A stretch of 64,000 bases of DNA from Spirochaetaceae bacterium (GCA_051531975.1 JAOPTT010000009.1:1-64000); one strand, 5' to 3'. Numbered from the stretch's first letter, positions 12,378 to 57,867 are shown. Translations and numbers: made by a program. Notes: generated by a model from the letters alone, not told the origin.

Positions 12378-12389
12378 TGTAATCCCCTT

Positions 12390-14777
12390 CTAAATAGTCT
12401 GCTCTGTTCTTGCAATGATATCGTTCTGAGTTTCAGTCGAAAGATTTGTAAAGAAGGCCGAGTACCCAGCCACCCTAACCACTAGATCATGAAACTGCTC
12501 AGGATCTTTTTGGGCTGCTAACAAAGTTTCCCTATCAACTATATTAAACTGAATATGCCATCCTTTTAAATCATCAAAAAATCCATGGAGCATAGAAGCC
12601 AGTTTTTCTTTTTTCTCATTAGATTGCAAAATTGTTGGTGATAATTTTTGATTTAATAGAACCCCTCCTAGAATTTTATCTGTAGGCAATTTACTAATAC
12701 TTCGCATTACAGCTGTAGGCCCAAGCTTATCTGCACTGGCCGAAGGTGATGCACCTTCAGCAAGGGGCATCCAAGCTTTTCGCCCGTCTGGAGTAGCAGG
12801 GACTATTGATCCTGCAGGAACATTTCCGGAGATACTTGATGTCCCGGCAAAATACCTACAACCAATTGCTCCACTTCCTTCACGGATAGTATGATAATTT
12901 TCAATCTCATTAATGTAACAATTATAAGCTTCCACAAGTATATTATCGACATAGTCATCGTCATTACCGTATTTAGGGGAATAATTTAGTAAAATTTGTC
13001 TGAACTTCTCACCAGATGGACCTTCAAAGTTATTTTTTATAACATCCATCAACTCTTTTGCAGTAAAACGTTTTTCTTCAAATATAAGTTTCTTAATAAC
13101 CGCCAAGGAATCACCTAGGTTTGCAATCCCTACCTGAAGACCAGATACAAAGTCATATTTACTACCACCTTCGTGTATTGTCATTCCTCTTTCAAGGCAC
13201 TGATCAGTGAAAGCTGAACATAGAATATCAGGAGCTTCATCCCGTAGAACGACATCAATCGCTGAATCTATTGCTATTCCGGCTTTAGCATAATAACGGA
13301 CCTGTTTATCCCAGGAATCCATAACCTGTGAAAATTGTGTGAAATCTTCAAGGTTTCCTATTCCTTCACAGAATTGTTTCCCGCTGACTGGATCAGTTCC
13401 ATTATTAAGGGAAGCTAGAAATACACGCATAAAATTGAGAAAGTGTTTACCTGTACAACGGTATCCCCATTTCCCAGGTACAGCAACTTCAATACAACCA
13501 ATAGCTGAATAATCCCAAGCGTCTTCTTTTTCAACACCAATCTTGAGAAAAGAGGGGATAACAATAGCATCATTATTAAATGCTGGCATTCCAAATCCAA
13601 GTTGAATTACTTTAATACATTCCAACAGAAAATCTTTATTAAGGTTTTCATGAAACCGAACTGTCAAATTAGGTTGTGTAAGCTTTGTTTCCCCTACAGA
13701 TTTAAGAATCAAGTAAGATAGATCATTTACTGCATCGGTTCCATCCTGTAATTGTCCACCAATTGTTACATTCTGATAAAGAGGTCCTCCTGCTGAAAAC
13801 CGGGTGTGGGACCAAGAACGTATTTTTTTCATACTTACAAGTTTAAGCCATGTATTTTCTAGAAGTTCCATTACAAAAGAATCTTCTATTATGCCTTTCT
13901 CTTTATCATCTTTATAAAAGGGATAGAGGTATTGATCCATACGTCCAAGGGATAATGAATGACCGTTACTTTCAATTTGTAAAACCAACTGTACAAAGTA
14001 GTTTAGTTGTAGAGCCTGATAAAAGTTCTCCGGTTTTTCAGAAGATATAAACCGACAATTTATTTCAATCTTTTCTAGTTCGACCTTTCTAGTTTTATCT
14101 TGTTCTTTTTTAGCTAACTCTCCAGCTAAATTTGCATACCGAATGATAAAAAAATGAAAAGCCTTAAGGGACATCAGAGTCGATTTATAAAATAGATGTT
14201 TTTTTATTCCATCAGGTGAAATTAGATCAGGTTCAGCCATTCTTTTACTGACATCATTTTCAAACCATCCTAATCCTTTATCCATAATTTTCCTGAAATG
14301 AGCAGCAATATGGGCATCTCCAGATGTTAGGTTTCCTTCTGCACGGATTATTCCTGATTCATGAATTGCTAAAAGATCTTCCGTCAACAAGGCACGGCCT
14401 TTATCTAGCGTAGTTTTCTTTTCCCAATATTTACAAATATCCAATAACTTTTTTTTGGTATTTGTATCAGGGAAAAATGCATCTCCTTGACGCTTTTCAA
14501 AATCATCTATCTCTTTACTTATCCATTCAACTGCGTATTCCGGAAAAATAGGTGCTGCATATATAGCAGAAGAGTGATTACCTACAATTAGGTCTTCAGG
14601 CTCAATGCCAATTGTCATTGATTCTAGAGTATCTTTTAATGCATGAGCCCTTTTAATAATTACTGGTTTATCTTCGTGTTCCTTATAAGCCTGTGTATAA
14701 AAAAAAGCTCTTTCGGTACAGATTGTCGGCTTTGTCTTTAATATCCTATCTCTGTATAATTTCATTCGTTTTGTCAA
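12390..14777 (-). CDS. ybiW: Glycyl radical enzyme, YbiW(PflF)-like
   Basis: GCIE, VRVAGY; AEGNLTSGDAH, PLYQNVTIGG, GKWGYRCTG, AGTSSIS segments recalled from E. coli YbiW; TTG start after GGAGG. Confidence 0.87.
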   Translation of the reverse strand: MTKRMKLYRDRILKTKPTICTERAFFYTQAYKEHEDKPVIIKRAHALKDTLESMTIGIEPEDLIVGNHSSAIYAAPIFPEYAVEWISKEIDDFEKRQGDAFFPDTNTKKKLLDICKYWEKKTTLDKGRALLTEDLLAIHESGIIRAEGNLTSGDAHIAAHFRKIMDKGLGWFENDVSKRMAEPDLISPDGIKKHLFYKSTLMSLKAFHFFIIRYANLAGELAKKEQDKTRKVELEKIEINCRFISSEKPENFYQALQLNYFVQLVLQIESNGHSLSLGRMDQYLYPFYKDDKEKGIIEDSFVMELLENTWLKLVSMKKIRSWSHTRFSAGGPLYQNVTIGGQLQDGTDAVNDLSYLILKSVGETKLTQPNLTVRFHENLNKDFLLECIKVIQLGFGMPAFNNDAIVIPSFLKIGVEKEDAWDYSAIGCIEVAVPGKWGYRCTGKHFLNFMRVFLASLNNGTDPVSGKQFCEGIGNLEDFTQFSQVMDSWDKQVRYYAKAGIAIDSAIDVVLRDEAPDILCSAFTDQCLERGMTIHEGGSKYDFVSGLQVGIANLGDSLAVIKKLIFEEKRFTAKELMDVIKNNFEGPSGEKFRQILLNYSPKYGNDDDYVDNILVEAYNCYINEIENYHTIREGSGAIGCRYFAGTSSISGNVPAGSIVPATPDGRKAWMPLAEGASPSASADKLGPTAVMRSISKLPTDKILGGVLLNQKLSPTILQSNEKKEKLASMLHGFFDDLKGWHIQFNIVDRETLLAAQKDPEQFHDLVVRVAGYSAFFTNLSTETQNDIIARTEQTI

Positions 14778-42173: not shown

Positions 42174-43688
42174 ATGAATAAGAAAGTACAAGAGTTATTA
42201 CAATTACCAGTTTTATCTATATTTTTATTATTAACAGTAGGAACTTCATTTTCAAGCCATATGTTTTTAGACGGCGTTACAATGGCTGCAATATCCCGTA
42301 ACCTTTCAGTAGGTCTTGGATCATATTGGGACATGTTTTATACAACAGACATTAATCATTTTATTTCACATCCCCCTTTTGGTTTGTGGTTAGAATCAAT
42401 TTTATTTAGAATTATTGGAGATAAACCATGGGTTGAGTCTCTGTTTGGATGGTCACTAGGTATTTTCTCGATATATTTAATATCAAAGCTATGGAAAAAG
42501 GTTACAGGTAAGACCAGTGGTTCATGGTGGGTTATATTAATTACTCTTTTTAGCCCAATATTAACATGGTGTTTTAATAATAATATGCTTGAAAATAGTG
42601 TTGTTGTATTACTTTTAATTTATACATTATTGGTGATTGAAGCCTTTAATTCCAATAATATTCTAAAGCTTTCATTATTTTCACTATCATCTGGTATTAT
42701 AATGTTTTTAGCTTTATCTACTAAAGGACCACCAACACTGTTTCCCATAATACTACCACTGGTTATTCCTCTTTTTCTGAAAAAGTTCAGTATAAAAAAA
42801 GGTTTAACTATTTTAAGCTTAATCTTATTAACAATTATGTTATCAGTTGGTATTACATATTTAATTAGTGGAGATGAATTTATGAGATTCATTAGTAGAT
42901 ATATTCGCCACCAGTTATTACCTAGTATAAACGGTGATGTTGAAGTTTCCCCTAATAGGTTACTAATATTACAAATCCTACTTAAACAACTGCTTTTAGG
43001 ACTAATATTGATAGTTATATCGATAACTACTATTACCAAGAAAAAAAATATTTTAAAGGAAAATAGCTGGATTATTGTTCTTATTGTCTTGGGACTTGCC
43101 GGAAGTTTACCTTTCTTGATTTTTAAAAAACAGATGGCTTGGTATTTAATGCCAAGTATTCCATTCTTTACTATAGCAATAAGTATTTTAACAGCTCCCA
43201 TTGCAGAAAAAATAGAGGTGTTTATATATAAAAAAATAGGAGTTTTCAATAATATTATTACAATTTTCACGGCCTGTTTAGTATTGATTTCTCTATTTTC
43301 AACCACTATATATAAAGGTAAATCATATTTAGCTCCTGAAATTGTAATAAGAGATATTTTTTCTTCAGGTAAAGATGGATCAAATAAAGATAAAGCAAGA
43401 TTTTATAGTGAATATACATGGCAAAATTTCAACCTAGATATTGTAAATCAGAAAGTTGAAATCCCAGTAGGAAGTAGTATCGCTACTCAAGAAACACTAC
43501 ACGATTTTTGGCGAATGAATGCTTATTTTCAGAGAGTTTATAGTGCTAATCTTAGTCTTAGAATAAAAAGTGATGGTGACTTCTTTATAGCTGGGGAAGT
43601 ATCAAAAGATAATTTTTCTCCATTTGGTTTTAGACCTATTAGTAATAAAAAGGCTGTTTATAACTTTTTTGAAAAAACAAACAAATGA
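42174..43688 (+). CDS. GT-C membrane glycosyltransferase (ArnT/PMT-like)
   Basis: Multi-TM; DG near the N-terminus, SHPPF, NMLE, TKGP. Confidence 0.8.
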   Translation: MNKKVQELLQLPVLSIFLLLTVGTSFSSHMFLDGVTMAAISRNLSVGLGSYWDMFYTTDINHFISHPPFGLWLESILFRIIGDKPWVESLFGWSLGIFSIYLISKLWKKVTGKTSGSWWVILITLFSPILTWCFNNNMLENSVVVLLLIYTLLVIEAFNSNNILKLSLFSLSSGIIMFLALSTKGPPTLFPIILPLVIPLFLKKFSIKKGLTILSLILLTIMLSVGITYLISGDEFMRFISRYIRHQLLPSINGDVEVSPNRLLILQILLKQLLLGLILIVISITTITKKKNILKENSWIIVLIVLGLAGSLPFLIFKKQMAWYLMPSIPFFTIAISILTAPIAEKIEVFIYKKIGVFNNIITIFTACLVLISLFSTTIYKGKSYLAPEIVIRDIFSSGKDGSNKDKARFYSEYTWQNFNLDIVNQKVEIPVGSSIATQETLHDFWRMNAYFQRVYSANLSLRIKSDGDFFIAGEVSKDNFSPFGFRPISNKKAVYNFFEKTNK

Positions 43689-44047
43689 GAAGCTGTAAAG
43701 TTTATTAGGAAAGCAGTTAATATTCCTATTCCTTGTGGAATCGTTTTATAAGGTATATTGGGAAAAACTGTAAGCAGAAGATTTAGAACTATTAAATTGA
43801 TTAGTAGTCCTACTAATGAAACCGATACAAACTTTACATATCGAACAAATGTTAATGAAGCACCTTTATACGTCCACAGGGTATTTATTATATAGTTCTG
43901 AGATACCGCAATAATAAAACATATAATAGCTGCTATATTTTTATCTAACATATATCTATCTGCGATTATATAAAAAATGATTAAGTTTGTTATTAACCCT
44001 AAGGAGCCAACTAGACCAAAACTTATTAGACGCTTAAATATATTCAT
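43658..44047 (-). CDS. GtrA family flippase-like protein
   Basis: FGLVG...N, QNYIIN..WTY, KFVSVS..GL.IN, NFTAS..FVF. Confidence 0.85.
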   Translation of the reverse strand: MNIFKRLISFGLVGSLGLITNLIIFYIIADRYMLDKNIAAIICFIIAVSQNYIINTLWTYKGASLTFVRYVKFVSVSLVGLLINLIVLNLLLTVFPNIPYKTIPQGIGILTAFLINFTASHLFVFSKKL

Positions 44048-44748
44048 TTGATAAATCTTAAAAGCCAAACTTTAAATAATGCTTCAAAATATATTTTTAA
44101 ACTCATTTTAGATTTACCAGCACTACGTTCAATAAAAACGATAGGAAATTCTAAAAAACTAAAACCATTTTTAATTGCCCTAGTTTTTAGTTCAATCTGA
44201 AACATATAACCCTTTGATATTATAGAATCAAAATTGATAGATTCTAATACTTCTTTTTTCCAAAAATTGAAGCCACCAGTCATATCTTTTATTCCACTTT
44301 GTAGAATTATTCTAGAATATAATGACCCATATGAGGATATAATACTTCTAAACCGACTCCACCCTTCAATACCTCCGCCATTAATATATCTAGAGCCAAT
44401 TACAAAATCACACTTCTCATCAAATTTAGACATCATGGATTTTAAATACTTGGGTTGGTGGGAAAAGTCAGCATCAAATTGACATATATAATCATAATTG
44501 CTATTTAAAGCCCATTTAAATCCTTGAATATATGCGTAAGCTAACCCTTCTTTAATTTTACTTTCCACTAGATAAAGGTTTTTAGTTCGAATCATAAGGT
44601 CTTTTACACATAAGTTAGTACCATCGTTTGAATTACCGTCAACTACTAAAATATCTACATGGGGACAGTTACTAAAAACTTTAGTAATAATATGGCTAAT
44701 ATTTTCAATTTCGTTATATGTTGGTATTATAATCAAGTTTTTTGACAT
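44044..44748 (-). CDS. Polyprenol monophosphomannose synthase-like GT2
   Basis: IIPTYNE, DADFSHQP, IGSRY..GG, DMTGGF, GYMFQIE, ER..GKSKM. Confidence 0.9.
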   Translation of the reverse strand: MSKNLIIIPTYNEIENISHIITKVFSNCPHVDILVVDGNSNDGTNLCVKDLMIRTKNLYLVESKIKEGLAYAYIQGFKWALNSNYDYICQFDADFSHQPKYLKSMMSKFDEKCDFVIGSRYINGGGIEGWSRFRSIISSYGSLYSRIILQSGIKDMTGGFNFWKKEVLESINFDSIISKGYMFQIELKTRAIKNGFSFLEFPIVFIERSAGKSKMSLKIYFEALFKVWLLRFIK

Positions 44749-44827
44749 AATGCCATAATAAAGCTTCATATTATAGCTGTCAATAATAAAGCTTGTCAGA
44801 GATTATCATATATATTATTATCAAATA
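44749..44827. promoter_or_regulatory. Back-to-back sigma70 promoters, both abutting start codons
   Basis: Minus: TTGACA(44783-44778)-17-TATTAT-6-ATG 44748; plus: TTGTCA(44793-44798)-17-TATTAT-6-ATG 44828. Confidence 0.7.
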
Positions 44828-45487: not shown

Positions 45488-45528
45488 TAAATAATTATAT
45501 TGTCATAATTATTTATAGCATATATAAT
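45488..45528 (+). promoter_or_regulatory. Promoter of the radical SAM/Tat cluster with an inverted repeat over the -35
   Basis: TTGTCA(45500)-17 bp-TATAAT(45523); TAAATAATTAT-N6-ATAATTATTTA at 45488-45515. Confidence 0.6.
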
Positions 45529-45562: not shown

Positions 45563-46573
45563 ATGGCTAATATTCTCCTTACCGAACAGTGCGTAAGATC
45601 ATGCCCATATTGTTTTGCTAAGAAACATATGGAGAATTCTGAAAATAAAAACTTGCAATGGGAAGATTTTATTTATATTGTTGATCTTTTTGAAAAGAGA
45701 AACCCTAGATATATGTCTCTTTTAGGTGGAGAACCTACTCTACATAAACATTTTGTAGACTTTGTTTTATACTTAATAAATAGAGATTTTGGTGTAACAG
45801 TTTTTACAAGTGGTATTATGAGTCCTTCTAAATTAGAGGCTTTAAAAAAGGCTTTAGCAGAGTTTCCAAAAGCAAAGGTAAGTTTTGTTGTAAATCTAAA
45901 TCATCCATCAATGTCTGATGAGAAAGAACTAGAGAGAATTGATGCATTTCTAGATGAGTTTGGAGAGAGTTGTACTTTAAGTTTTAACTTTTATACGTTA
46001 GATATGGAGATGGAATATCTTTTTGATTATATTGAAAGATTTAACTTAAATAGACATATTCGAATCGGTTTAGCTCATCCAATTCCAGGAGAAAAAAACC
46101 TTTGTATTCCTACTGACCAATTTGACGAAATGGTCGAAAAATTAGCAACATATATACCTATGTTTATTAAATATAGAGTTAGCCCTGGGTTTGATTGTGG
46201 ATTCCCACTTTGTAAATTTACCGATGATCAATTAGGTAAATTTAAGAAATTAGAAAAAGGTAATGGCTCAGGTTCTGTTAAATTTGGTTGTAATGCTGCA
46301 ATTGATATTGGTCCAGATATGACTGTATGGTCTTGTTTCCCTTTATCTAAGTATCATAGAAAAAGTCTATATGACTTTGATTCAGTTGATGCTGTTTATG
46401 AGTATTATCAAACAATGCATTATAATGTGAGAGATAAAAAAGCTGGAGTTTTTGAAGAGTGTGAAGGATGCCGATATCAAGAAAGTGAGTTATGTAAAGG
46501 TGGTTGTCTTGCGCATATAGTTAATACTGATGAAAGCATTATTAAGGAGGCTAGTGGTGTTAAACGTAACTAA
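45563..46573 (+). CDS. Radical SAM/SPASM protein
   Basis: CVRSCPYC, LGGEP, C...IGPD.TVWSC, CEGC...CKGGC. Confidence 0.92.
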   Translation: MANILLTEQCVRSCPYCFAKKHMENSENKNLQWEDFIYIVDLFEKRNPRYMSLLGGEPTLHKHFVDFVLYLINRDFGVTVFTSGIMSPSKLEALKKALAEFPKAKVSFVVNLNHPSMSDEKELERIDAFLDEFGESCTLSFNFYTLDMEMEYLFDYIERFNLNRHIRIGLAHPIPGEKNLCIPTDQFDEMVEKLATYIPMFIKYRVSPGFDCGFPLCKFTDDQLGKFKKLEKGNGSGSVKFGCNAAIDIGPDMTVWSCFPLSKYHRKSLYDFDSVDAVYEYYQTMHYNVRDKKAGVFEECEGCRYQESELCKGGCLAHIVNTDESIIKEASGVKRN

Positions 46574-47429
46574 AAAAATAATTGTTGCTGCTTATGAGCC
46601 AAAGTTTGCAAATGATATTGGTAAACAGAAAATAGTATATTACACAGATAAATTAGAAGACGTTCTTACAATTTATGGTGATGCCATAGATAAAAACGAA
46701 CTTATGTGTATAAAAGTTGATACTGATAAAAATCTATCTGAACTTGAATTTAAAGATGAATGGCAAAGTATTCCAATTGCCCTTTATACTCCATCTGTTG
46801 GTGATCTATCAGAGATGTTAATACAGGGTAAGAAACTAAAAAAGTTTAATATCCAGATTTTCTTACCAATAGAAAATAAAGATACAATTAGAGATCTTAG
46901 AATACTTTCTTCTGTCGGTATCAATTGTGGTTTTTATATTAAAGATGAAAATTCAGATGTAGACTGGGAACAAGTTGATGATCTTTTTTATTACTATGCT
47001 TATACAAATACTGAAAAAGGAAATATAGAACCTTTTAGATATATAATTGAAAAAGACTATAGAGAAAAATCATTTGATTTTAGAGCTGTAATATTTGATG
47101 ATCCAAATAAATTTGTTTATGTAGACAAGGATTTTAACTATTCAGTAAATCTTGATGAACTTACTAAAGGTTCTTTTCTTGGTAATGGAATTGATGAGTT
47201 AAAATCATATATAAATGAAGAAATAGATTATGTTTCAAAAAAATCAGATATGTTTTCTAAAAATGAAATCTGTTCATACTGTAGTAGTTGGAGGTTTTGT
47301 AGATCTAATTATTTTTCTCAATGTCAAAAGAATGAAACATATAAAATGTTGTTTGATAGTGTTTCTGATTATCTTGAAGTTCGAGTAAAACAACCATCTC
47401 AGAATGTGGAAAAAAAATGGCAGTTATAA
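46557..47429 (+). CDS. Hypothetical protein with a C-terminal SPASM-like Cys cluster and no CxxxCxxC
   Basis: CSYCSSWRFC...C; AAGGAGG RBS before GTG 46557; overlaps both neighbours. Confidence 0.7.
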   Translation: MLNVTKKIIVAAYEPKFANDIGKQKIVYYTDKLEDVLTIYGDAIDKNELMCIKVDTDKNLSELEFKDEWQSIPIALYTPSVGDLSEMLIQGKKLKKFNIQIFLPIENKDTIRDLRILSSVGINCGFYIKDENSDVDWEQVDDLFYYYAYTNTEKGNIEPFRYIIEKDYREKSFDFRAVIFDDPNKFVYVDKDFNYSVNLDELTKGSFLGNGIDELKSYINEEIDYVSKKSDMFSKNEICSYCSSWRFCRSNYFSQCQKNETYKMLFDSVSDYLEVRVKQPSQNVEKKWQL

Positions 47430-48523
47430 TTTTTAAGGCTATTGAATATTGTAATTCAAATTGTATTTATTGCAGCGTTATAGAGAAAGATGAAGGCCAT
47501 ACTATGAGTTATGAAAGGCTTGAAACTGTTTTTATACGTATGAACCAATATTTGGAAGAACTTCCAGACGAGATAATCGATTTTACTTGGCATGGAGGGG
47601 AAGCAACCTTATTAGGTCCTGAATATTTTAGAAAAGCTTTAGAGTTTCAGAATGTTCACTGCAAAAAGACTAAGAATAGGATTAAGCATATAATACAATC
47701 TAATTTAACATGTATTACCCAAGAAATTATTGATGTTCTTAAAGACCTAGGTATAAACTCAATAGGATCAAGTTATGATCCTATTGAGGGAATTAGAGGG
47801 ATTGGTAAAAATAGAGACTCTAAATTATATAAAGAATTGTTTTTTAAAGGTGTTGATTTAGTTGAGAAAAATGGAATGACTTGGGGGATTATTTATGTTG
47901 TTCATAGAAGATCTTTAGAAGACCCCGTAGGAATTTTTAACCATTTGTCAAACTTAAATTTAGGCACATCTCCTGTTTTTAACTGTATATATTTGTACGA
48001 GGATGATAAACATCATTTAAGTATTACCCCCGAAGAGTTTGCGGACTTTTTAGGAGCTCTTGTCCCTTTATATATGGAAAATCCTGAAAAATATAAATCT
48101 ATACGACCACTAAGCATGTTTATTGACTCTATAAAAGAAAAAACACCATTAGGTTGTGATTATGCAGGAAATTGTGCAAATTATTGGCTATATATTGGAC
48201 CTACTGGTGAACTATCCCACTGTGGTAGAGCAGGTGATCAAAGAATAATAAGTTATGGAAATATCGACGATACTAGCCTAAAGGAAGCACTAAATCATCC
48301 TTACCGGAAAAAAATACTTGCTAGACAGACGTATTTGGTTGATAATGATTGTAAAGGCTGTAAATATTGGGGCATATGCCATGGTGGATGTCCAGTGGAT
48401 GCATTGTCTATGACTGGTGACATTATGAATAAAGCTATGTCATGCGAAATGGTAAAAAGATTAATGTCAAAATATATTGAACCCTTAGTTGATAAAGAAG
48501 TGCAATTTTATCCTAATAATTAA
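47417..48523 (+). CDS. Radical SAM/SPASM peptide maturase-type enzyme (anSME-like)
   Basis: CNSNCIYC, WHGGE, QSN, SYD; full SPASM C..C..G..C...CKGCKYWGICHGGCP...C. Confidence 0.92.
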   Translation: MAVIIFKAIEYCNSNCIYCSVIEKDEGHTMSYERLETVFIRMNQYLEELPDEIIDFTWHGGEATLLGPEYFRKALEFQNVHCKKTKNRIKHIIQSNLTCITQEIIDVLKDLGINSIGSSYDPIEGIRGIGKNRDSKLYKELFFKGVDLVEKNGMTWGIIYVVHRRSLEDPVGIFNHLSNLNLGTSPVFNCIYLYEDDKHHLSITPEEFADFLGALVPLYMENPEKYKSIRPLSMFIDSIKEKTPLGCDYAGNCANYWLYIGPTGELSHCGRAGDQRIISYGNIDDTSLKEALNHPYRKKILARQTYLVDNDCKGCKYWGICHGGCPVDALSMTGDIMNKAMSCEMVKRLMSKYIEPLVDKEVQFYPNN

Positions 48524-48553
48524 AGTTAGGTTTTATATAAAGAGGTGTGAATT

Positions 48554-48760
48554 ATGAATGAGAAAGAAATCATGGAAACTGGATCAGAGAGCAAAGTAAT
48601 TTCTAGAAAGGAAGCTTTAAAAAGAATTTCTAAGATCGGTTTAGGTATTGGTGCTGCAGTTGTTGCTACAAGTTGTGATCTTTATTATTACGACTATACT
48701 TATAGTGACTATAGTGATTATTATTACAGCTACTATGTTTATACAAACTACTACTGGTAA
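48554..48760 (+). CDS. Putative RiPP precursor: Tat-type lipoprotein signal plus Tyr-rich core
   Basis: GAGGTG RBS; SRKEALK, h-region IGLGIGAAVV, ATS-C, core CDLYYYDYTYSDYSDYYYSYYVYTNYYW. Confidence 0.8.
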   Translation: MNEKEIMETGSESKVISRKEALKRISKIGLGIGAAVVATSCDLYYYDYTYSDYSDYYYSYYVYTNYYW

Positions 48761-48763
48761 TCT

Positions 48764-48970
48764 ATGCTGAGTTTTGTAGAGATTGCAATAGTAGGTGGAG
48801 CGATTCTTTTAATTTTTGGATCAACGAAACTTCCAAAATTGGGCCGAACAATGGGTCAAAGTTTGACAGAGTTTAAAAAAGGACTTAAAGAGGGTATGAC
48901 AGATACTAATGTTACTGATGAAAAGAAAGATGAAGAAGTAGCTGATAAGTCTGATATTGTGAATGAGTAA
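48764..48970 (+). CDS. tatA: Twin-arginine translocase TatA/TatE
   Basis: EI...LLIFGSTKLPKLGRTMGQSLTEFKKG. Confidence 0.93.
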   Translation: MLSFVEIAIVGGAILLIFGSTKLPKLGRTMGQSLTEFKKGLKEGMTDTNVTDEKKDEEVADKSDIVNE

Positions 48971-49673
48971 TACATTAACATTTTTTGAACACGTCAAAGA
49001 ACTTAGAAATAAATTAGGAATCTCTTCCATTGTATTTGTAGTGGCATCTGTGTTTGGTTACATAATTTTTCCATCTGTAATTAGTTATTTTAATAACTTT
49101 TTAGATGTAGGACTTCATGTAACCAAATTATATGAGGGCTTTTTTATGCGAGTGCAGGTTTCTCTTTATATTGGTCTTATATTTTTTATACCAGTTTTTT
49201 TATTAAATCTTTTGTTATTTATAGTCCCAGGTTTTGAGAAAGGTGATAAAGCAGTATTTGTTTCATTATTTCTTCTCAGTATCATTTTGTATGTAGTTGC
49301 TATACTTTCAGTTAGTATCTTTTTACCTATCACTATAAATTTTCTTCAATCAAAATCTTTTATTCCTGATACTCTTAATAAGATATTTTCATATGGTGAA
49401 TTTATAGATTTCTTTTTTACTTTTTTGTTAGCATTTTGTGTATCATTACAGTTTCCAGTTGTATTATTGGTTTTGCTGTATTTCAAAATATTAAAAACTG
49501 CTTGGTTAACTAAGTTTATTCCATACTTTGTTCCTGTTGCATTATTGTTGTCAGCAATAATGACTCAAGATATACTTTCTCAATTTTTGGTTGCAGTACC
49601 ACTGTTTGTTTTATATTTATTGTGTATCTTAGCTGCAAAGAAGTTAAAATGGGGTGTTGATGATATTTCTTGA
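48963..49673 (+). CDS. tatC: Twin-arginine translocase TatC (divergent)
   Basis: EHVKELRNKL, FIVPG, QFPV, TQD..SQ...AVP...LY; about 6 TM segments. Confidence 0.88.
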   Translation: MSNTLTFFEHVKELRNKLGISSIVFVVASVFGYIIFPSVISYFNNFLDVGLHVTKLYEGFFMRVQVSLYIGLIFFIPVFLLNLLLFIVPGFEKGDKAVFVSLFLLSIILYVVAILSVSIFLPITINFLQSKSFIPDTLNKIFSYGEFIDFFFTFLLAFCVSLQFPVVLLVLLYFKILKTAWLTKFIPYFVPVALLLSAIMTQDILSQFLVAVPLFVLYLLCILAAKKLKWGVDDIS

Positions 49674-51288
49674 AATAATTGCAATTCTTTTTATTATTTT
49701 TATTATTAATCCACAAAACTCTGTTTCTATGTTACGGAAAGCTGGTGTTTTAGTTGGAAAATTAAGAAAAGTAATAAATCAATTAAAATCTTATTCTAAA
49801 GACTTTAATATAACTAATCTTGATAATGAAGTTGCAGGTAATAAAAATAGTGGGGTAAATGTTAATAATGGAAAAGCTGACCATTCAACCACAGTAACAA
49901 AGATGGTTCTTTTAGATGTTATTGAAGCTAGTTATAGTATTAACATGACAAAAAATATAATTCCTTTTCTATTTGATAACAATCCAGATATTGTAAGTAA
50001 AACTATTACTATCTTAAAAAAGGATCCTCTGTTTTCATTTGAAAAGAGAGATTCATTTAGTAACTGGAATGTTGAAAAATTAGTAAGGAATCCCAATTCA
50101 GAATATTTTAATAAGGTTTTTGATCCTAATAGAGTTGCTGAAGTATCAGGAGCTATCTTTAGTATTCCTAAGGAATCTTTTGAGAAACATTATAAAAATC
50201 TCGCTGACTTTAACGGTATAGATAATTTAAACATGAAAACAATATTTTCTAAAGATAAAAGCTCATTTTTTGGTGAGTTTAAAAACTTAAGAAAAAAATA
50301 TATCGCTAAGTGCTATCCTCCACAGGGATTTGTATCACCTAGTTATAGATGTAATCTAGATTGTTCCTATTGTTTTTCTAAAGACTTATTGCAAAAATTT
50401 AATAACGATATGACAGTTGAACAATTTACATTGTATTTAAAAAAGCTTAAGGCTGACTATAATATTAAGGAAATTGGATTTTTTGGTGGTGAACCAACTT
50501 ATTTCAAAAAATTAAATGAGTTTATAGATGTAGTTGAAAATGAAAAACTATTTTGTAATATTGCCTCAAATGGTATTGTTGAAAATCAAATCTGGGAAAA
50601 AATTGTTTCTAGAGGTAGTCTAGCAATGATTACATTTCATATTGAGGATAATGATTTTTATACTAACGATACCCACTTACCTAATATTATATCTAATATT
50701 AAAAGTGCTAACCAATTTAAAAAACAGATAACTTTTAGATATAATATCGTAGATAGTGAGAGAACTGATTGGAGTTTTCTAAATAAATATATTGATTTAG
50801 TTTCACAGTTTAGGTTTAGTTTTGCTATTCCATTTCCTTCTGGTAATGGTGAAAACGAATATGTATCATTAGATGAGTTAAATAAATTTGGAAAAACAAT
50901 TGTTTCTATGATCGATCATATAGATTTTTATAGTAGAAATAGACCATATGAAATTGTATTAGCTAAACCTATACCTCTATGTGTTTTCTCTGAAAAAGAA
51001 TATTTGAGAATTTTAGAAAAAGTCAGATACAAAAATGTATGTGAAATTGATAAAAATAATAATACAAATAATCTTATAATTAATCCTGATGGTTCATACC
51101 AGTCATGTGTAGGTTTAAATAAAGACAAGTACATATTCAATGACTTTTTAGGTCAAGAGTCTCTTCCTAGCAGTTATCATATGAATATTGATAGAGTTAT
51201 AAATAAACCAATGATGGATGACTGTAAAAAGTGTTATCTATTTAATATCGGAGTCTGCCAAGGGGCTTGTTATGCCTACACCCAGTAA
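49660..51288 (+). CDS. TatB-like N-terminus fused to a radical SAM/SPASM domain
   Basis: LEIIAILFIIFIINPQN TM plus amphipathic helix; CNLDCSYC (50350-50373), FGGEP, INPDG.YQSC, CKKC...CQGAC. Confidence 0.8.
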   Translation: MIFLEIIAILFIIFIINPQNSVSMLRKAGVLVGKLRKVINQLKSYSKDFNITNLDNEVAGNKNSGVNVNNGKADHSTTVTKMVLLDVIEASYSINMTKNIIPFLFDNNPDIVSKTITILKKDPLFSFEKRDSFSNWNVEKLVRNPNSEYFNKVFDPNRVAEVSGAIFSIPKESFEKHYKNLADFNGIDNLNMKTIFSKDKSSFFGEFKNLRKKYIAKCYPPQGFVSPSYRCNLDCSYCFSKDLLQKFNNDMTVEQFTLYLKKLKADYNIKEIGFFGGEPTYFKKLNEFIDVVENEKLFCNIASNGIVENQIWEKIVSRGSLAMITFHIEDNDFYTNDTHLPNIISNIKSANQFKKQITFRYNIVDSERTDWSFLNKYIDLVSQFRFSFAIPFPSGNGENEYVSLDELNKFGKTIVSMIDHIDFYSRNRPYEIVLAKPIPLCVFSEKEYLRILEKVRYKNVCEIDKNNNTNNLIINPDGSYQSCVGLNKDKYIFNDFLGQESLPSSYHMNIDRVINKPMMDDCKKCYLFNIGVCQGACYAYTQ

Positions 51289-52195
51289 GGTTGGAGTCAA
51301 TTACATAATATTCAATGAACTCTGGGACGATGTTTTAGAAAATGAAAGTAATCAACCTATTAAGACAATTGAGCTAAATAAGTTAAAAACTATATATTTT
51401 GACTATTTATCAAATGCTTTAAAAAACCTACAACAATCACATACAAATATCGCAGTAACTGTTTGGCTAATTGAGATTTCTGAATCAGGTATAAAAGAAG
51501 TCGATCTTAGAGAGCAATTATTTAATACATTACCATACGTAAGAATTTATACAATTCCATTCATGAAAATAAGAAATTATATTTCAGCTGCAAAGAGACT
51601 AGCAAAAGGATTATATAGATCTCCTAATGAATTACACGAATTTTTAATTCTACATATAATAAAACTATCAACAACTCCTTATATTGCTATTTTAGACACT
51701 GATAATCTATTTCTAAGGCAAGATGCTTTGAATATTATTTTCCAATCATTAGAAGAAGATAAAGATAAATGGATAGGTTGTATCATGGAAAAAGGTATTA
51801 AGAGACCTTATAACGATGGATTCACTCAAATGAGAGAGAGAATGCATAGTGTAGCCCTTTTTATTATTAAAGATCGATTTAATAAAGGATTTACTGAGAC
51901 AACAAATTGGCGGATAGATACTTTTGATAAAGTTAAATTAATACAAAATGATGAATGCAGAGATTATTATCATAAGTATAAATTCTTCGATACTTTGGCG
52001 TTGTTAACCGATCTATTTAAATATAACTTTGGTGTAAATAGAATAAAAGAGTTAAACAAAGAATTAAACTCCCAAGAGTTTGAAAAATTAACCATAGTTA
52101 ACGATCTTTTTGTTCATAGTAAATATTTGCATGGAATAGATTATATTTTTGAAAACTTAAAAGATAATAAATTCATTTCTTCAATTCAAAGGTAA
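51272..52195 (+). CDS. Glycosyltransferase-like (GT-A, DxD) hypothetical protein
   Basis: H...L...TTPYIAILDTDNLF, late FVH; AAGGGG RBS before ATG 51272; overlaps the upstream gene. Confidence 0.55.
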   Translation: MPTPSKVGVNYIIFNELWDDVLENESNQPIKTIELNKLKTIYFDYLSNALKNLQQSHTNIAVTVWLIEISESGIKEVDLREQLFNTLPYVRIYTIPFMKIRNYISAAKRLAKGLYRSPNELHEFLILHIIKLSTTPYIAILDTDNLFLRQDALNIIFQSLEEDKDKWIGCIMEKGIKRPYNDGFTQMRERMHSVALFIIKDRFNKGFTETTNWRIDTFDKVKLIQNDECRDYYHKYKFFDTLALLTDLFKYNFGVNRIKELNKELNSQEFEKLTIVNDLFVHSKYLHGIDYIFENLKDNKFISSIQR

Positions 52196-52255: not shown

Positions 52256-52303
52256 ATCGTTTTAATATATTAAATACTAATCTTATCTTATATGGAGGTC
52301 GCA

Positions 52304-53536
52304 ATGTCAATGTATAAAATAGTATTAGTAATAATTAGTATTTCACTTCTATTTTCATGTACAGAGCAAGAGTATTTAGAATTAACGGGTGATTATTCTA
52401 TTGGAACATCAGTTTTTGAATTAGAAGACAAATCAAGGTTAGAATATTATTCTGAGGAAGTATCTGAAAATAGAACAATTGTAATCAGAGCATGGTATCC
52501 AATTGAAGCCAAATCGGGTAAAACACTTCCACAATATAATGGTAAGGGAGTAGCAAAAGAATTTCAAAAACTTTTTGGTATACCTTCCTTTTTAATGAAA
52601 GATAATATTGGAAGAGCCTATACTGATGGAAGCCCTTTAAAAGGTAAATATCCTGTAGTCATTTTTAATCATGGTTTTAGTTCATGGGAATCTCAAAATG
52701 CTACAACAATGGAAGAAATAAGTTCCAACGGTTATGTTGTGCTAAGTATAAATCATCCATACGAAAGCCTTTTTACTCAATTTAATAATATGGATAGTGT
52801 TAAATTCTCTATACCTGGTTATAAAGATAAGCTTAAAGCTATGAATAAAGATATTGATGATATAACTAACGAGTTAATACAAATGGTTAAAACTATTAAA
52901 GAAGCAACTACTGAGAAGTTATATAAAGAAGCTGTTATTAAAATTACTCAATCAAAGGCTTACAAACCTGTTTTCCCATCTTTAAAATTGTGGATTGAAG
53001 ATACAGCTTTTTTAATCTCATCTCTAAATGATATTAATTTAAGTAATATAATCGACAGTGATAATATTGCAGTTATAGGTCACTCTTTTGGAGGACTTGT
53101 ATCTAGTGAACTTTCAATGTTAGGAATTAGTGGTATTAAGTGTGGCATAAGTTATGATGGACCTGTTCTATTTGATAATATGAATAAAGATATTTCTCTG
53201 AAAACCCCATTTCTATTTTTAGCAAGTACCAATGCTAAGTATGGAAAAACTGTTGTTGATCTGTCAGGTCAAAATGATTTTTTAACAACAAAAACTGATA
53301 AAAAAGTTATTTCAGGCTCAATAAATGGTAGTGGGCATTATAATTTTTCAGATATGGGTTATGTCTCTTTTCTTAAAAGAACATCGATGTTAGGTCCTAT
53401 TGATGGAGTTAAGTCGTTACAAATTATGAATGGTATAACACTGTCTTATTTAGACCATCATTTAAAAGGTGAAGTTGATCCAACCAATTCTTGGTTAAAA
53501 ATTTACCCTGAATGGAATGTAAGCAGATCTAACTAA
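52304..53536 (+). CDS. Alpha/beta hydrolase lipoprotein (PAF-acetylhydrolase-like)
   Basis: Lipobox LFSC, PVVIFNHG, NHPYE, GHSFGG, HYNFSD. Confidence 0.87.
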   Translation: MSMYKIVLVIISISLLFSCTEQEYLELTGDYSIGTSVFELEDKSRLEYYSEEVSENRTIVIRAWYPIEAKSGKTLPQYNGKGVAKEFQKLFGIPSFLMKDNIGRAYTDGSPLKGKYPVVIFNHGFSSWESQNATTMEEISSNGYVVLSINHPYESLFTQFNNMDSVKFSIPGYKDKLKAMNKDIDDITNELIQMVKTIKEATTEKLYKEAVIKITQSKAYKPVFPSLKLWIEDTAFLISSLNDINLSNIIDSDNIAVIGHSFGGLVSSELSMLGISGIKCGISYDGPVLFDNMNKDISLKTPFLFLASTNAKYGKTVVDLSGQNDFLTTKTDKKVISGSINGSGHYNFSDMGYVSFLKRTSMLGPIDGVKSLQIMNGITLSYLDHHLKGEVDPTNSWLKIYPEWNVSRSN

Positions 53537-54326
53537 GACCAACTAGTTCAAATCTACTATTAACACCAGTTTTTTTAAAAATGTTTGTTATATGTGTTTT
53601 GACTGTGGGTATTGATATAAATAGTTCTTCGCTAATTTGTCTGTTTGATTTTCCTTTTAAAATATAATGTACAACCTCTTCCTCTCTGGGGGAGAGGCCT
53701 TCAATTTTTTTTGTGTTAATGTTATGTGTAATACTCGTATAATAAAGAATACAGTATAAAAGATATATGAATGGATATAGACGAATAGGTAAGGTATCTT
53801 GAGATATTATATCAAAAGCTATTAATGGAAGAAGAATCATATCATATTTTGAACTCTGTTTTTCAAACTTGGTTTTGTTCTTTTTAATTACACTACCAAA
53901 CATCGTAAATGCAAATAGAATAACAATAAATATCCGTATATAATTTACATGTGGAGATAATATTGTAATAAAATTATTTTCAATTTTCATAACAAATAAG
54001 ATAGATATTAAAATTATCAAACCACTAAAAATGTAAAATGCCAAAATTGGTTTTAAATATTTATGGTGCTTATATTGTAATTTAACAAGGCTTAACATAA
54101 ATAATATGACCATAATAGAAGTTGAATAATTTAGAATATAAATTATTGAAGGGTGAATTGAACTTATATTAATATTTAGATAAAAAATTATTAGTGTTAA
54201 TAATTGAAGTATTGTAAAAGTACAAAAGACCCAGAAATATTCTGAGTTAAGATTTTTTAATTTTTTTAGTATAAGTACACCTGCAACAATTATCGATGCA
54301 AGGTATAGGATGTAAATATGAATCAT
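53529..54326 (-). CDS. Membrane-bound LuxR family regulator
   Basis: Multi-TM N-terminus; LSPREEEV...GKSNRQISEELFISIPTVKTH. Confidence 0.9.
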   Translation of the reverse strand: MIHIYILYLASIIVAGVLILKKLKNLNSEYFWVFCTFTILQLLTLIIFYLNINISSIHPSIIYILNYSTSIMVILFMLSLVKLQYKHHKYLKPILAFYIFSGLIILISILFVMKIENNFITILSPHVNYIRIFIVILFAFTMFGSVIKKNKTKFEKQSSKYDMILLPLIAFDIISQDTLPIRLYPFIYLLYCILYYTSITHNINTKKIEGLSPREEEVVHYILKGKSNRQISEELFISIPTVKTHITNIFKKTGVNSRFELVGLS

Positions 54327-55998: not shown

Positions 55999-57867
55999 TT
56001 AAGTTATCTTTTCCCAATCTTTGTATAGTTTCTCTAGCCGTACTTCAAGTTTTTCTAACTTAGTTGCAACTTTTCTACCTTTTTGGTGATCATTACTATT
56101 TAAAAGAGATTTAAGTTCCTGCTCCAATTGCATTTTCTCTTCTTCAGCATTTTCAATCCTTTTCTCAATATCAATAGAATTTACTGTTTTAACTTTAATG
56201 CTGCGTTCTGTACCTCTAGTTTTAATTTCACCATTGAGTCTAGGAAGTACTGGATACCTAAACTTAAAATACTCTGAGAAATTACCATCAAAGGAAGTAA
56301 ACTTTTTATCTGATATTTCAATTACCCTATCTACTAACTGATCTAGAAAAAATCTATCATGAGATATAACCAACACAGTCCCACTAAAATTATTAATAGC
56401 TTGTTCTATCATCTCTCTGCTATTTATATCCATATGATTTGTTGGCTCATCTAATATTAAAAAGTTTGTATTCTGGTACATTAATCTTGCAAGTTGTAAC
56501 CTGTTTACTTCTCCACCAGAAAGAACAGATAGGTGTTTATCCATATCTTGAAACTCAAATGAAAACTTTTTGGCAATATTGAATGCTTCATCCGCTGTTA
56601 AAGGACCCCAGCATCTTATCTCATCTGTTATTGTAATTGCACTGGAATCAAATGATGGAACTTGTGATAGATAACCAACCTTCTGACTAGGTCCAATTCT
56701 AAGCCCTTTATTGTTCCAATCACCATGATTTAGTACAACATTTATAAAAGTAGTTTTTCCAACACCATTTGGTCCAACTAGGGCAACTTTCTCCCGACAT
56801 TGAATATCTAAAGCTGCATTTTTAAAGAGTACTTTGTCATCATAACTGAAACTAAAATCTTTAACTTCCATTGCTATGTGTGACTTAGAGTTTTCCTCAC
56901 CAAAATTTAGTTTTATGTTATCGTTTTCAATTTGTGGTCTTTCTAAGTTTTTATCAAGTTCAAACTGTAACTTTTTTTTATTTGCACTAAGTTGATCCAT
57001 GATTTTAGCAGGTGGATTATTCTGAGACATTGCGATTGATTGTAACTCTTTAAGTTTACGTTTAATTCGTACTATTTCTTTTTTTGAAGACTCATATGCA
57101 CTTTTTTCAATAATTGCATGCCTATATTTTTCTAATCTTAGGGAGGAATATTTACCATTAAAAGTTGTAAGTTTACCATTAAACATATCAAAAAGAGTTT
57201 CACATGTTTTATCTAATAGATAACGGTTATGAGATACAATTAATACAGCGGATTTATACCCTTGGATAAAAGATTCTAGCCATGCTAATCCTAAATAATC
57301 TAAATGATTCCCAGGTTCATCCAATATTAAAAGTTCAGGTTCTGAAATTAATGCTTTAGCAAAAAAAACTAGAGACCTCTCCCCTCCAGATAGGGAACCC
57401 ATAGACTGATCTAAGGAGTTATCAAGACCGAGCTTTTTAAGTAATGCCTCACCTTTATCAAGTGCAGAATATCCTCCAAGAGTTTCAAACTGTTCAGAAA
57501 CCTTTTGGTAATCTGTAAGTAATGCTTCCATTGTCTCTGGATTTGTATCTACCATTGATGATTCTAGTTTATGAAGTTTATCCATAATAGGGGTCAATTC
57601 TGTTATTAAAAAGTCCTGAAGGGGCATTTCAGAGTCAAATTTTGGTTGCTGGGGAAGGTATCCAACATTTAGATCTTTTTTTAGAAAGAGAGATCCATTA
57701 TCCTGTTCGGTTTCACCTAGTAATAGACGAATTAGTGTAGTTTTTCCTACGCCATTAGGGCCTATCAAACCAATTTTTTGGCCTTCCAAGATTCTAAAAT
57801 CTGTATCAATTAATATATCTTTTGATCCATTGTTAAGGTTTAGTTTTGTAGCTTTTACCAGTTCCAT
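55999..57867 (-). CDS. ABC-F family ATPase
   Basis: Two GPNGVGKTT, LSGGE, DEP.NH, SH.R motifs; no TM segment. Confidence 0.93.
   Translation of the reverse strand: MELVKATKLNLNNGSKDILIDTDFRILEGQKIGLIGPNGVGKTTLIRLLLGETEQDNGSLFLKKDLNVGYLPQQPKFDSEMPLQDFLITELTPIMDKLHKLESSMVDTNPETMEALLTDYQKVSEQFETLGGYSALDKGEALLKKLGLDNSLDQSMGSLSGGERSLVFFAKALISEPELLILDEPGNHLDYLGLAWLESFIQGYKSAVLIVSHNRYLLDKTCETLFDMFNGKLTTFNGKYSSLRLEKYRHAIIEKSAYESSKKEIVRIKRKLKELQSIAMSQNNPPAKIMDQLSANKKKLQFELDKNLERPQIENDNIKLNFGEENSKSHIAMEVKDFSFSYDDKVLFKNAALDIQCREKVALVGPNGVGKTTFINVVLNHGDWNNKGLRIGPSQKVGYLSQVPSFDSSAITITDEIRCWGPLTADEAFNIAKKFSFEFQDMDKHLSVLSGGEVNRLQLARLMYQNTNFLILDEPTNHMDINSREMIEQAINNFSGTVLVISHDRFFLDQLVDRVIEISDKKFTSFDGNFSEYFKFRYPVLPRLNGEIKTRGTERSIKVKTVNSIDIEKRIENAEEEKMQLEQELKSLLNSNDHQKGRKVATKLEKLEVRLEKLYKDWEKIT

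Follow-up and report, generated by a model that had tools for sequence, protein, structure and literature searches.

Here we describe a gene cluster in a 64,000-nucleotide stretch of DNA from Spirochaetaceae bacterium (GCA_051531975.1 JAOPTT010000009.1:1-64000; hereafter the window, at its full length), which probably encodes a radical S-adenosylmethionine (SAM)-matured exported peptide system with a twin-arginine translocation (Tat) signal as its leader and a dedicated translocase in the cluster, belonging to a widespread family that is undescribed so far. Taking the sequence comparisons together, we are moderately confident that this system serves the maturation and export of a small Tyr-rich pre-protein via radical SAM enzymes and Tat. 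All eight open reading frames (ORFs) of the cluster were confirmed on the plus strand between positions 45563 and 52195, and they encode, in order, rSAM1, orf2, rSAM3, the precursor peptide, tatA, tatC, rSAM7 and orf8. As an earlier note made from the sequence alone had described, these genes are co-oriented and overlap or abut, with overlaps of 44 nt (rSAM1/orf2), 13 nt (orf2/rSAM3), 8 nt (tatA/tatC), 20 nt (tatC/rSAM7) and 71 nt (rSAM7/orf8), and with gaps of 30 nt between rSAM3 and the peptide gene and 3 nt between the peptide gene and tatA. Seven of the eight gene labels given in that note hold; the label that fails is "GT-like" for orf8, which matched no Pfam, NCBIfam or PADLOC family.

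To place the cluster in a wider family, an rSAM1 alignment was scanned against one genome per species, which yielded 99 relatives, and 80 of their loci were kept. These loci came from Spirochaetota, Bacteroidota (most of the loci), Nitrospirota, Thermodesulfobacteriota and other "delta" lineages, Elusimicrobiota, Acidobacteriota, Planctomycetota, Verrucomicrobiota, Armatimonadota, Veillonellaceae and one Thorarchaeota-labelled bin, spanning about ten phyla. A complete rSAM1-orf2-rSAM3 triad in this order was present in 68 of the 80 loci, and a full orf2 ORF between rSAM1 and rSAM3 in 73. Clustering of the ORFs over 81 loci, the window included, revealed no other widely shared neighbour. A tatC gene was found in seven of these 81 loci (again counting the window), an rSAM7 orthologue in spirochaete loci only, and tatA, tatC and a TatB-like::radical SAM fusion occurred together in the cluster only in spirochaetes. 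Judged by this gene content, the conserved unit is rSAM1-orf2-rSAM3 plus the precursor, and the private translocase and third radical SAM protein are a spirochaete addition. The eight-gene unit that was first proposed is thus kept in part: its triad and precursor are conserved, usually without adjoining tat genes and well beyond the spirochaetes.

The window precursor gene (48554..48760, plus strand), with GAGGTG located 7 nt ahead of its ATG, encodes 68 residues reading M..KVI-SRKEALKRISK-IGLGIGAAVV-ATSC-DLYYYDYTYSDYSDYYYSYYVYTNYYW. Its Lys/Glu-rich N-terminus is followed by a Tat-type motif (S17-R-K-E-A-L-K-R-I-S-K27; 48602-48634, plus strand), and its Tyr-rich core (D42-W68; 48677-48757, plus strand) has 14 Tyr among 27 residues and no His. 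Lipoproteins carry a lipobox of the pattern [LVI][ASTVI][GAS]-C at the end of a hydrophobic stretch, and here A38-T39-S40-C41 (48665-48676, plus strand) directly follows IGLGIGAAVV and was counted as a lipobox. TRF found just a 9-nt, 2.3-copy repeat in the core, so simple repetition of DNA does not account for the Tyr-rich ORF.

We searched the related loci for R[RK]x[hydrophobic]2[KRQE] upstream of a 25-residue span with at least 8 Tyr, a pattern that fixed leader positions 0, 1, 3, 4 and 5 and left positions 6-9 free. Precursor-type ORFs were detected in 50 of the 80 related loci, giving 60 ORFs in 51 of 81 loci when the window is included, which answers in the affirmative the neighbourhood check for Tyr-rich Tat peptides suggested in the earlier note. 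The same test returned one ORF in the 5,457,215 bases of the window's own genome, namely that of the cluster itself, versus 59 in 1,017,784 bases of related loci, and none in eight paralogous radical SAM loci. Of the 37 triad loci flanked by 4 kb or more on each side, 28 hold a precursor ORF, and six of the nine remaining loci carry a leader-like ORF below the threshold (fewer Tyr, or a KR/KK variant). Placement is also regular, as 54 of 56 placed precursor ORFs lie on the same strand, 27 just 3' of rSAM3 and 27 just 5' of rSAM1. Some loci carry tandem precursor genes; L066 (4797-7862) has five and L062 (6268-7874) three, upstream of rSAM1 and with near-identical leaders and differing cores. 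Cores range from 22 to 209 residues (median 74) and consist of 37.5% Tyr, 16% Ser and 12% Asn; the residue at Tyr+2 is Y in 31%, N in 25%, S in 22% and D in 8% of cases, a preference that is silent on bonds. A profile search for precursors returned 133 proteins or clusters among 5.8 billion proteins, each with the source name "hypothetical protein", and the window peptide alone retrieved itself and one 84-aa relative from the same 5.8 billion. No dedicated NCBIfam family was found for nine precursors. These sequence comparisons support the Tyr-rich peptide as a real, conserved partner of the radical SAM genes.

Two further observations concern the cores. Several end in or near Trp, including those of the window (48755-48757), L033, L062, L066, L022, L026 and L028 (..TNYYW, ..VVSW, ..YYNW, ..SAYWD), which may be a conserved C-terminal feature. 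Elsewhere in the window's own genome (G000), contig C8 contains an ORF with about 28 consecutive Tyr codons and no RR leader (approximate residue offset 45656), probably a simple repeat.

The leader is the most constant part of the precursor. Anchored on RR, the family leader reads [KE]K[IL][ST]-R-R-[ED]-A-[LIM]-K-R-[IM]-A-K, exemplified by the leader-type peptide KVISRKEALKRISK, and the window counterpart is SRKEALKRISK. Across the 60 precursors, Ala+3 is found in 60, Lys+5 and Arg+6 in 56 each and Ala+8 in 52, and R18, A21 and R24 are invariant in a 19-sequence precursor alignment. As given in PMC3383694, the Tat consensus is (S/T)-R-R-x-F-L-K ahead of a moderately hydrophobic stretch. The window motif S-R-K-E-A-L-K has RK for RR and A for F, and this Ala at the F position is the one invariant in all 60 precursors; RR itself is present in 57 of the 60, in agreement with the Tat-type signal first noticed on the window peptide. 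The Tat signal model TIGR01409 gave 15-16 bits in three of nine precursors tested (cut-off 16.7). Since its conservation goes well beyond that of Tat signals in general, the leader is probably the recognition site of the maturases as well, and its sequence suggests that the leader probably doubles as Tat signal and maturase recognition sequence.

We then examined the triad. rSAM1 (45563..46573, plus strand; 336 aa) is a radical SAM/SPASM-type maturase by its Pfam Radical_SAM match (56.3 bits), with C10, C14 and C17 as well as C212, C217, C243, C258, C300, C303 and C311 invariant in a 71-sequence alignment. Its AlphaFold2 (AF2) model, built from 71 sequences (pLDDT 90.7), is closest to the folds of SuiB (E 8.8e-11, TM 0.66), SkfB, anSME, CteB and TigE, which are all peptide or protein modifiers. 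For rSAM1 there was no PDB sequence match and no NCBIfam model above 37 bits or near its own cut-off, with TIGR04085 (SPASM) at 21 bits (cut-off 27). A search among 1.84 billion proteins gave 428 representatives at E ≤ 1e-30 after 50% clustering. rSAM3 (47417..48523, plus strand; 368 aa) resembles radical SAM/SPASM peptide maturases and exceeds the cut-offs for Radical_SAM (37.4), SPASM (PF13186; 24.9 vs 21.5) and TIGR04085 (46.5 vs 27); C12, C16, C19, C247, C253, C269, C312, C315, C321 and C325 are invariant in 46 sequences. Its best NCBIfam equivalogs are DynA (137.7; cut-off 450), DarE (131.9; 650) and anSME (128.1; 349), none of which is reached, and its nearest solved sequence is anSMEcpe (E 1.5e-16). 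Both rSAM1 and rSAM3 hence carry the CxxxCxxC motif and the C-terminal Cys set that mark radical SAM/SPASM peptide maturases.

The protein between them, orf2 (46530..47429, plus strand), matched no Pfam or NCBIfam family. Its AF2 model from 64 homologues (pLDDT 89.9, pTM 0.87) has a radical SAM/SPASM fold, and VIA-align gave Z 12.2 to anSMEcpe (263 residues, root-mean-square deviation 4.1), 12.0 and 11.6 to CteB, 10.2 to TigE and 10.1 to SuiB, versus at most 6.8 for generic TIM barrels. The best Foldseek match was CteB (E 3.7e-4). The SAM-binding CxxxCxxC is absent from orf2, and its sole invariant Cys in 64 sequences are C248, C251 and C257, which form a C-terminal CxxCx5C(...C) motif. On this predicted structure we read orf2 as a catalytically dead radical-SAM-fold paralogue that retains one auxiliary Fe-S site, and the fold match to anSME and CteB (Z about 12) bears out its former label as a SPASM-like partner. 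A complex prediction of rSAM3, orf2 and the precursor, run without controls, scored 0.01, a value that counts neither for nor against binding.

We further focused on the spirochaete version of the system. Close orthologues of rSAM3 (54-62% identity) were detected in three of 40 related genomes, one from the same family and two from other families of the class. The order rSAM1-orf2-rSAM3-peptide-(tatA)-tatC-rSAM7 is kept in three other spirochaete genomes from three families, at 21-76% identity and with orf8 absent, and a fifth spirochaete metagenome-assembled genome (MAG) has the same gene order. In G039, tatA lies outside the cluster, and the sole PF02416 match sits at the edge of another contig. 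The orthologous spirochaete peptides have a true RR (TISRRQALERIGK...VSSC|D, ITRRDALKRIAK...ATSC|D, ISRREALKRIAK...LASC|D and ISRRDALKRMAK...AASC|D) and longer cores of the YYSDYYSNYY type. The window tatA (48764..48970, plus strand) matches PF02416 at 51.5 bits (cut-off 21), and tatC (48963..49673, plus strand) matches PF00902 at 116.2 bits (cut-off 25.1) and falls short of the TIGR00945 equivalog (107.9 vs 132.7). A 20-row TatC tree unites the five TatCs linked to clusters (support 89/90; 90% of bootstrap trees) and separates them from 11 other TatCs of spirochaetes.

The third radical SAM protein, rSAM7 (49654..51288, plus strand; 544 aa; Radical_SAM 47.5 bits), consists of a TatB-like anchor (about residues 1-60), a conserved middle domain of about 150 aa and a radical SAM/SPASM domain with CxxxCxxC at about 233-240. 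The motif is present in the window, and TIGR04085 gave 24.1 (cut-off 27). When 64-residue N-termini were compared with TIGR01410 (tatB), all five, from the window protein and four orthologues, matched (best E 4.5e-7; window E 0.019, 15.5 bits), each below the cut-off of 56.5, which agrees with the TatB-like::radical SAM/SPASM label of the earlier note. PF02416 matched one of four TatB-like N-termini (E 0.086), hhalign aligned the rSAM7 N-terminus to the cluster TatAs with E 5e-4 and a probability of 31%, and one rSAM7 database relative has precomputed PF02416 (TatA_B_E) and PF04055 assignments. rSAM7 is rare, as a search of 5.8 billion proteins gave 10 relatives at E ≤ 2.6e-83; of 14 aligned members, seven have the TatB-like anchor, five lack it, one has a partial N-terminus and one is cut short. 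The three radical SAM enzymes first counted are all present in the window, and the third is lineage-specific.

Several other genes accompany the spirochaete loci. In L015 (5865-8010) and L016 (2733-5031), two genes follow rSAM7, one for a YcaO-domain protein (PF02624; in L015 with E 1.1e-17) and one for a TPR protein, both of which the window lacks at that position; in L019 (13879-14997) only the gene for the TPR protein is there. In L014, the cluster of G022, a PNP_UDP_1 phosphorylase resembling MTA/SAH nucleosidases (11723-12397) is divergent from rSAM1, and our guess is that it could clear 5'-deoxyadenosine. The spirochaete locus L024 (5550-8593) holds a short rSAM7 relative without the TatB-like part, no tatA or tatC, and a precursor with RK and ..FVDC; its opposite strand encodes two radical SAM proteins, one of them B12-binding.

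Several results weigh against a radical-SAM-matured, Tat-exported and lipidated peptide. The triad enzymes miss all NCBIfam equivalog cut-offs widely, and because the margins are so wide, no chemistry can be transferred from a known enzyme. No RRE (the recognition element for RiPPs, peptides that are made by the ribosome and modified after translation) or PqqD domain that would account for leader binding was found in the scanned cluster genes and flanks. The window precursor has RK and gave no TIGR01409 match at E ≤ 0.01, and the genome-wide negative obtained with this model is weak, since the search also misses the cluster's own RK peptide. A lipobox-like end is seen in only about 15 of the 60 precursors; in 21 the Cys just before the Tyr-rich part stands in a context that is no lipobox, and 22 lack Cys altogether. 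Six of 45 triad-bearing genomes outside the spirochaetes, all of them MAGs of unknown completeness, yielded no TatC, and three of these six (L041, L056 and L083) nevertheless hold an RR precursor. The TatC of G040 is nearest to the cluster clade with no cluster genes within 9 kb, and the cluster genome G041 has two TatC matches. Finally, CxxxCxxC is lost in two of the 14 rSAM7 members (G022 and G037), so rSAM7 catalysis is dispensable at least there, and a binding or gating role is favoured for these two proteins.

The most serious alternative concerns the Cys, which may not be lipidated at all: it could be a modification site (a thioether or a Cys-Tyr link), or signal peptidase I could cut, so that the product would be a soluble periplasmic or secreted peptide. 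We hold this to be a possible but less probable course of events. The 21 Cys outside a lipobox and the 22 Cys-less precursors, which often end the signal in AxA (e.g., ADA|QYYY), speak for it, as do the thioethers made by enzymes with CteB- and SkfB-like folds. The "delta" precursors L060, L062, L066, L075, L076 and L093 place their Cys in Q-[DG]-[EQ]-C-[ST]-G-G-Y, a context unlike a lipobox that hints at a role other than lipidation. Since the lipobox is not a family-wide feature, the Cys could serve another purpose. In the window and other spirochaetes, by contrast, the Cys ends the hydrophobic stretch in lipoprotein fashion, 23-24 residues past RR/RK in [AVL][AST]SC with an acidic residue next (26 residues and LQSC in L027), and a number of Bacteroidales precursors resemble them (xxSC[ED]P). 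The window's own genome encodes Lgt and LspA (one and two matches over cut-off, respectively). Lipidation of the peptide is therefore a reasonable reading, from the sequence pattern, for the spirochaete lineage and not for the family; the lipid anchor proposed in the earlier note would apply to the precursors of spirochaetes and of some Bacteroidales, which make up roughly one quarter of the whole. The Tyr-rich core begins right after xxSC or AxA, which makes plausible the earlier suggestion that a signal peptidase replaces the leader peptidase.

The second alternative is that the tat genes form a general translocase that serves other substrates and neighbours the cassette by chance. Tat is a general export pathway, 11 of 37 related spirochaete genomes have TatC and no cluster, and the G040 and G041 TatCs described above fit this view. 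The screens of the window's own genome were crude, combining TIGR01409, which misses the cluster peptide, with a loose regular expression read by eye; they revealed no other convincing Tat substrate and no canonical [ST]RRxFLK protein. Against a general translocase, the own genome (5.46 Mb, 98.5% complete) has a single TatC and a single PF02416 match, both in the cluster. TatC is found in 15 of 41 genomes of the class, and in the four cluster genomes G000, G022, G037 and G039, which share the gene order, the sole match is that of the cluster. Both TatC and the cluster are missing from three genomes of the same genus, and in rSAM7 the TatB-like part is joined to a paralogue of the cluster maturases. 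We consider a chance neighbourhood unlikely, and the cluster tatA and tatC look dedicated to the peptide on this genomic evidence, in line with the cluster-encoded Tat system that was first proposed. Of the 45 other triad-bearing genomes, which lie outside the spirochaetes, 39 have a TatC match; three of the six without it are Elusimicrobia, and in two of these three (L065 and L067) the locus has no RR/Tyr ORF either.

It is still less probable that the triad acts on a cofactor or small molecule, with the Tyr-rich Tat protein as an unmodified co-regulated partner or scaffold. This would fit the missing RRE/PqqD, the lack of a close characterised relative of rSAM1 and the cores of up to 209 residues, which are long for a RiPP. 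However, all triad proteins fold like peptide-modifying radical SAM/SPASM enzymes, and the best families of rSAM3 are peptide maturases. Tandem precursors with a hyper-conserved leader and a variable core also follow the RiPP pattern, and modification ahead of export is the easiest explanation for why a disordered Tyr/Ser/Asn-rich stretch would need Tat and not Sec.

Under the favoured reading of a Tyr-rich peptide matured by radical SAM enzymes and exported through Tat, the 68-aa precursor would be made in the cytoplasm, where its N-terminal signal would serve both export and maturase recognition. rSAM1 and rSAM3 would modify the Tyr/Ser/Asn-rich core there, with orf2 helping as a scaffold or electron partner. 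From family resemblance, the likeliest chemistry would be several cross-links between Tyr side chains, of the cyclophane or ether type. The resulting rigid product may be unfit for Sec and would leave through Tat. Most spirochaetes lack Tat, and the spirochaete cassette would bring its own TatA, TatC and TatB-like anchor. More speculatively, the radical SAM/SPASM-like domain on this anchor, facing the cytoplasm at the translocon, might make a last modification, perform a check or hold the substrate. In the window lineage, Lgt and LspA would lipidate Cys41 and cut the signal (ATSC|D), leaving a 28-residue lipopeptide at the outer face of the inner membrane or beyond; elsewhere in the family, signal peptidase I may take the place of a leader protease. 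An envelope barrier or adhesive layer, or a defence like that of the HXS system discussed below, are our leading guesses for the role of the product. A bolder version, which we regard as rather unlikely, would have the TatB::radical SAM protein in the TatBC receptor make or verify the last cross-link and release only the finished peptide through a one-substrate translocase, with the lipid-anchored product forming an aromatic envelope barrier.

We also inspected the surroundings of the cluster in the window. As the earlier note had reported, there is no peptidase, membrane ABC exporter or PqqD/RRE domain in the cluster genes and the nine flanking ORFs scanned; the single ABC protein nearby (55999-57867, minus strand) is a soluble two-domain ATPase. 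Promoter-like counts were at chance level (59 vs 59.6) and no terminators were found; one 11/12 promoter-type match lies at 45500-45528, ahead of rSAM1. RNA evidence consists of one 161-nt contig from a small same-sample metatranscriptome, which is exact at 47437-47597 (the start of rSAM3) and too little to claim expression. The last ORF, orf8 (51218..52195, plus strand; 325 aa), is a doubtful member of the system. Its atlas clusters are all hypothetical, one with GT2 in 20% of members, and tblastn found no counterpart in L014, L015, L016 or any of the 80 loci. We therefore rejected orf8 as "GT-like" and as part of the system, which it joins by neither a family match nor conservation in orthologous clusters, and found no support for the earlier suggestion of a possibly glycosylated product.

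Upstream of rSAM1, positions 42174-44769 encode a PMT_2-type GT-C glycosyltransferase (plus strand), a GtrA-like flippase (minus strand) and a GT2 (minus strand), a trio that looks like a polyprenyl-phosphate-sugar periplasmic glycosylation module. These three genes were rejected as parts of the system because they are absent beside the orthologous clusters. Directly after orf8 lies a gene for a PAF-acetylhydrolase-like alpha/beta hydrolase (52292-53536; PF03403, E 2.2e-25) with a lipoprotein-type N-terminus ending in ..SLLFSC, followed by a multi-pass membrane protein with a C-terminal LuxR/GerE helix-turn-helix (53529-54326, minus strand), which is a possible local regulator.

These findings point to an undescribed maturase cassette carried by anaerobes that range from Bacteroidales to Thermodesulfobacteriota and Spirochaetota. 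Leader removal would pass to signal peptidase I or II, which would explain why protease and exporter are missing, and a signal that acts as the leader may be a blind spot of RiPP mining keyed to RRE domains, proteases and ABC exporters. In its spirochaete version, the cassette would provide a naturally occurring Tat system that apparently serves one substrate and whose TatB is joined to an Fe-S enzyme, which could offer a model for how Tat senses a finished substrate. If true, the bolder version would represent the first Tat quality-control step by a translocon-integral enzyme, and the family a new class of RiPP or protein modification in about ten phyla. Heavily cross-linked Tyr-rich lipopeptides, if they exist, would be new material for antibiotic or adhesive research, and an aromatic barrier layer could act, for example, against the entry of phages or antimicrobials.

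In the literature searched, supplements not covered, we found no description of a Tat-signal or Tyr-rich radical SAM substrate or of a TatB-radical SAM fusion, and the texts of PMC10352776 and PMC10288494, likewise without their supplements, do not mention Tyr-rich, Tat, signal-peptide or lipoprotein features. No curated model for the cassette was found in Pfam, NCBIfam or PADLOC. We then compared the system with known ones. It is like anSME, which is the nearest solved sequence to rSAM3 and a top structural match for orf2 and rSAM1, in that anSME modifies a protein before export; it is unlike anSME in its TIGR03942 score (128 vs 349), in having no sulfatase and in lacking a C/S-x-P-x-R motif in the precursor. 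QhpD, a radical SAM/SPASM enzyme, cross-links the quinohemoprotein amine dehydrogenase gamma subunit in the cytoplasm before it reaches the periplasm. Unlike the QhpD system, our cluster scores 45.5 against TIGR03906 (cut-off 453), encodes no dehydrogenase subunits and uses a different export route.

The best-scoring NCBIfam families of rSAM3 are DarE, DynA and the triceptide enzymes GrrM/OscB, AmcB, YhhB, XyeB and FxsB, and its triceptide scores all lie under the cut-offs (81.3/310, 73.5/425, 60.6/445, 49.1/450 and 31.6/370, respectively). These maturases cross-link aromatic side chains in short repeated motifs, and the cores described here, with N, S or D at Tyr+2 in 55% of cases, resemble the aromatic-X-X motif of triceptides. 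In DarE, DynA and triceptide systems, the leader is cytoplasmic and works with a protease or ABC exporter in place of a Tat signal, and we know of none with a partner like rSAM1 plus orf2. The tentative role of the TatB-fused domain has a counterpart, compared by concept only, in Tat proofreading chaperones of the TorD/DmsD/NapD type, in which, according to 10.1101/789909 and PMC4159696, a cytoplasmic protein holds the Tat signal until maturation is done; unlike them, the candidate here is a member of the radical SAM superfamily that is covalently joined to a TatB-like anchor.

The closest parallel in layout is HXS (HxsA/B/C/D; Li et al., Nat Commun 2026, PMC13128918). In HXS, a repeat effector with a signal peptide is matured in the cytoplasm by two radical SAM enzymes together with a small accessory protein and acts in the periplasm against phage DNA entry; the accessory protein is required for processing, and the authors propose a specialised export route. 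That paper provides a precedent for a radical-SAM-matured exported repeat protein with a signal peptide, so the claim that no described class has this architecture stands for the literature and models searched and is narrowed by HXS. An envelope anti-phage defence, in which the matured repeat effector blocks infection outside the cytoplasmic membrane, is improbable as the function of our cluster: the parallel layout, the weak NCBIfam echoes (rSAM3 to HxsB, 60.7 bits; rSAM1 to HxsC, 29.6 bits) and the patchy occurrence of the cluster (three of 40 relatives) are set against PADLOC matches to radical SAM proteins at a generic viperin level only, the lack of an HxsD match, of HxS repeats and of a peptidoglycan-binding domain, a core that is acidic or neutral and aromatic rather than basic, and neighbours that are not defence genes. 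The two systems share two radical SAM enzymes with a non-catalytic accessory protein, a signal-bearing repeat protein and, on the reading proposed here, maturation in the cytoplasm followed by action outside the membrane. They differ in that TIGR03978 (HxsB) and TIGR03977 (HxsC) are far from reached (60.7 vs 370 and 29.6 vs 267.9), and orf2, which matches no family at all, has no TIGR03976 (HxsD) assignment. The repeats here are rich in Tyr/Ser/Asn and not His-x-Ser, with no peptidoglycan-binding domain, and our system has a Tat-type signal with a lipobox, a dead radical-SAM-fold accessory and its own tatA, tatC and TatB::radical SAM fusion. From these comparisons, the cluster may follow an HXS-like working outline, yet it is not a member of HXS.

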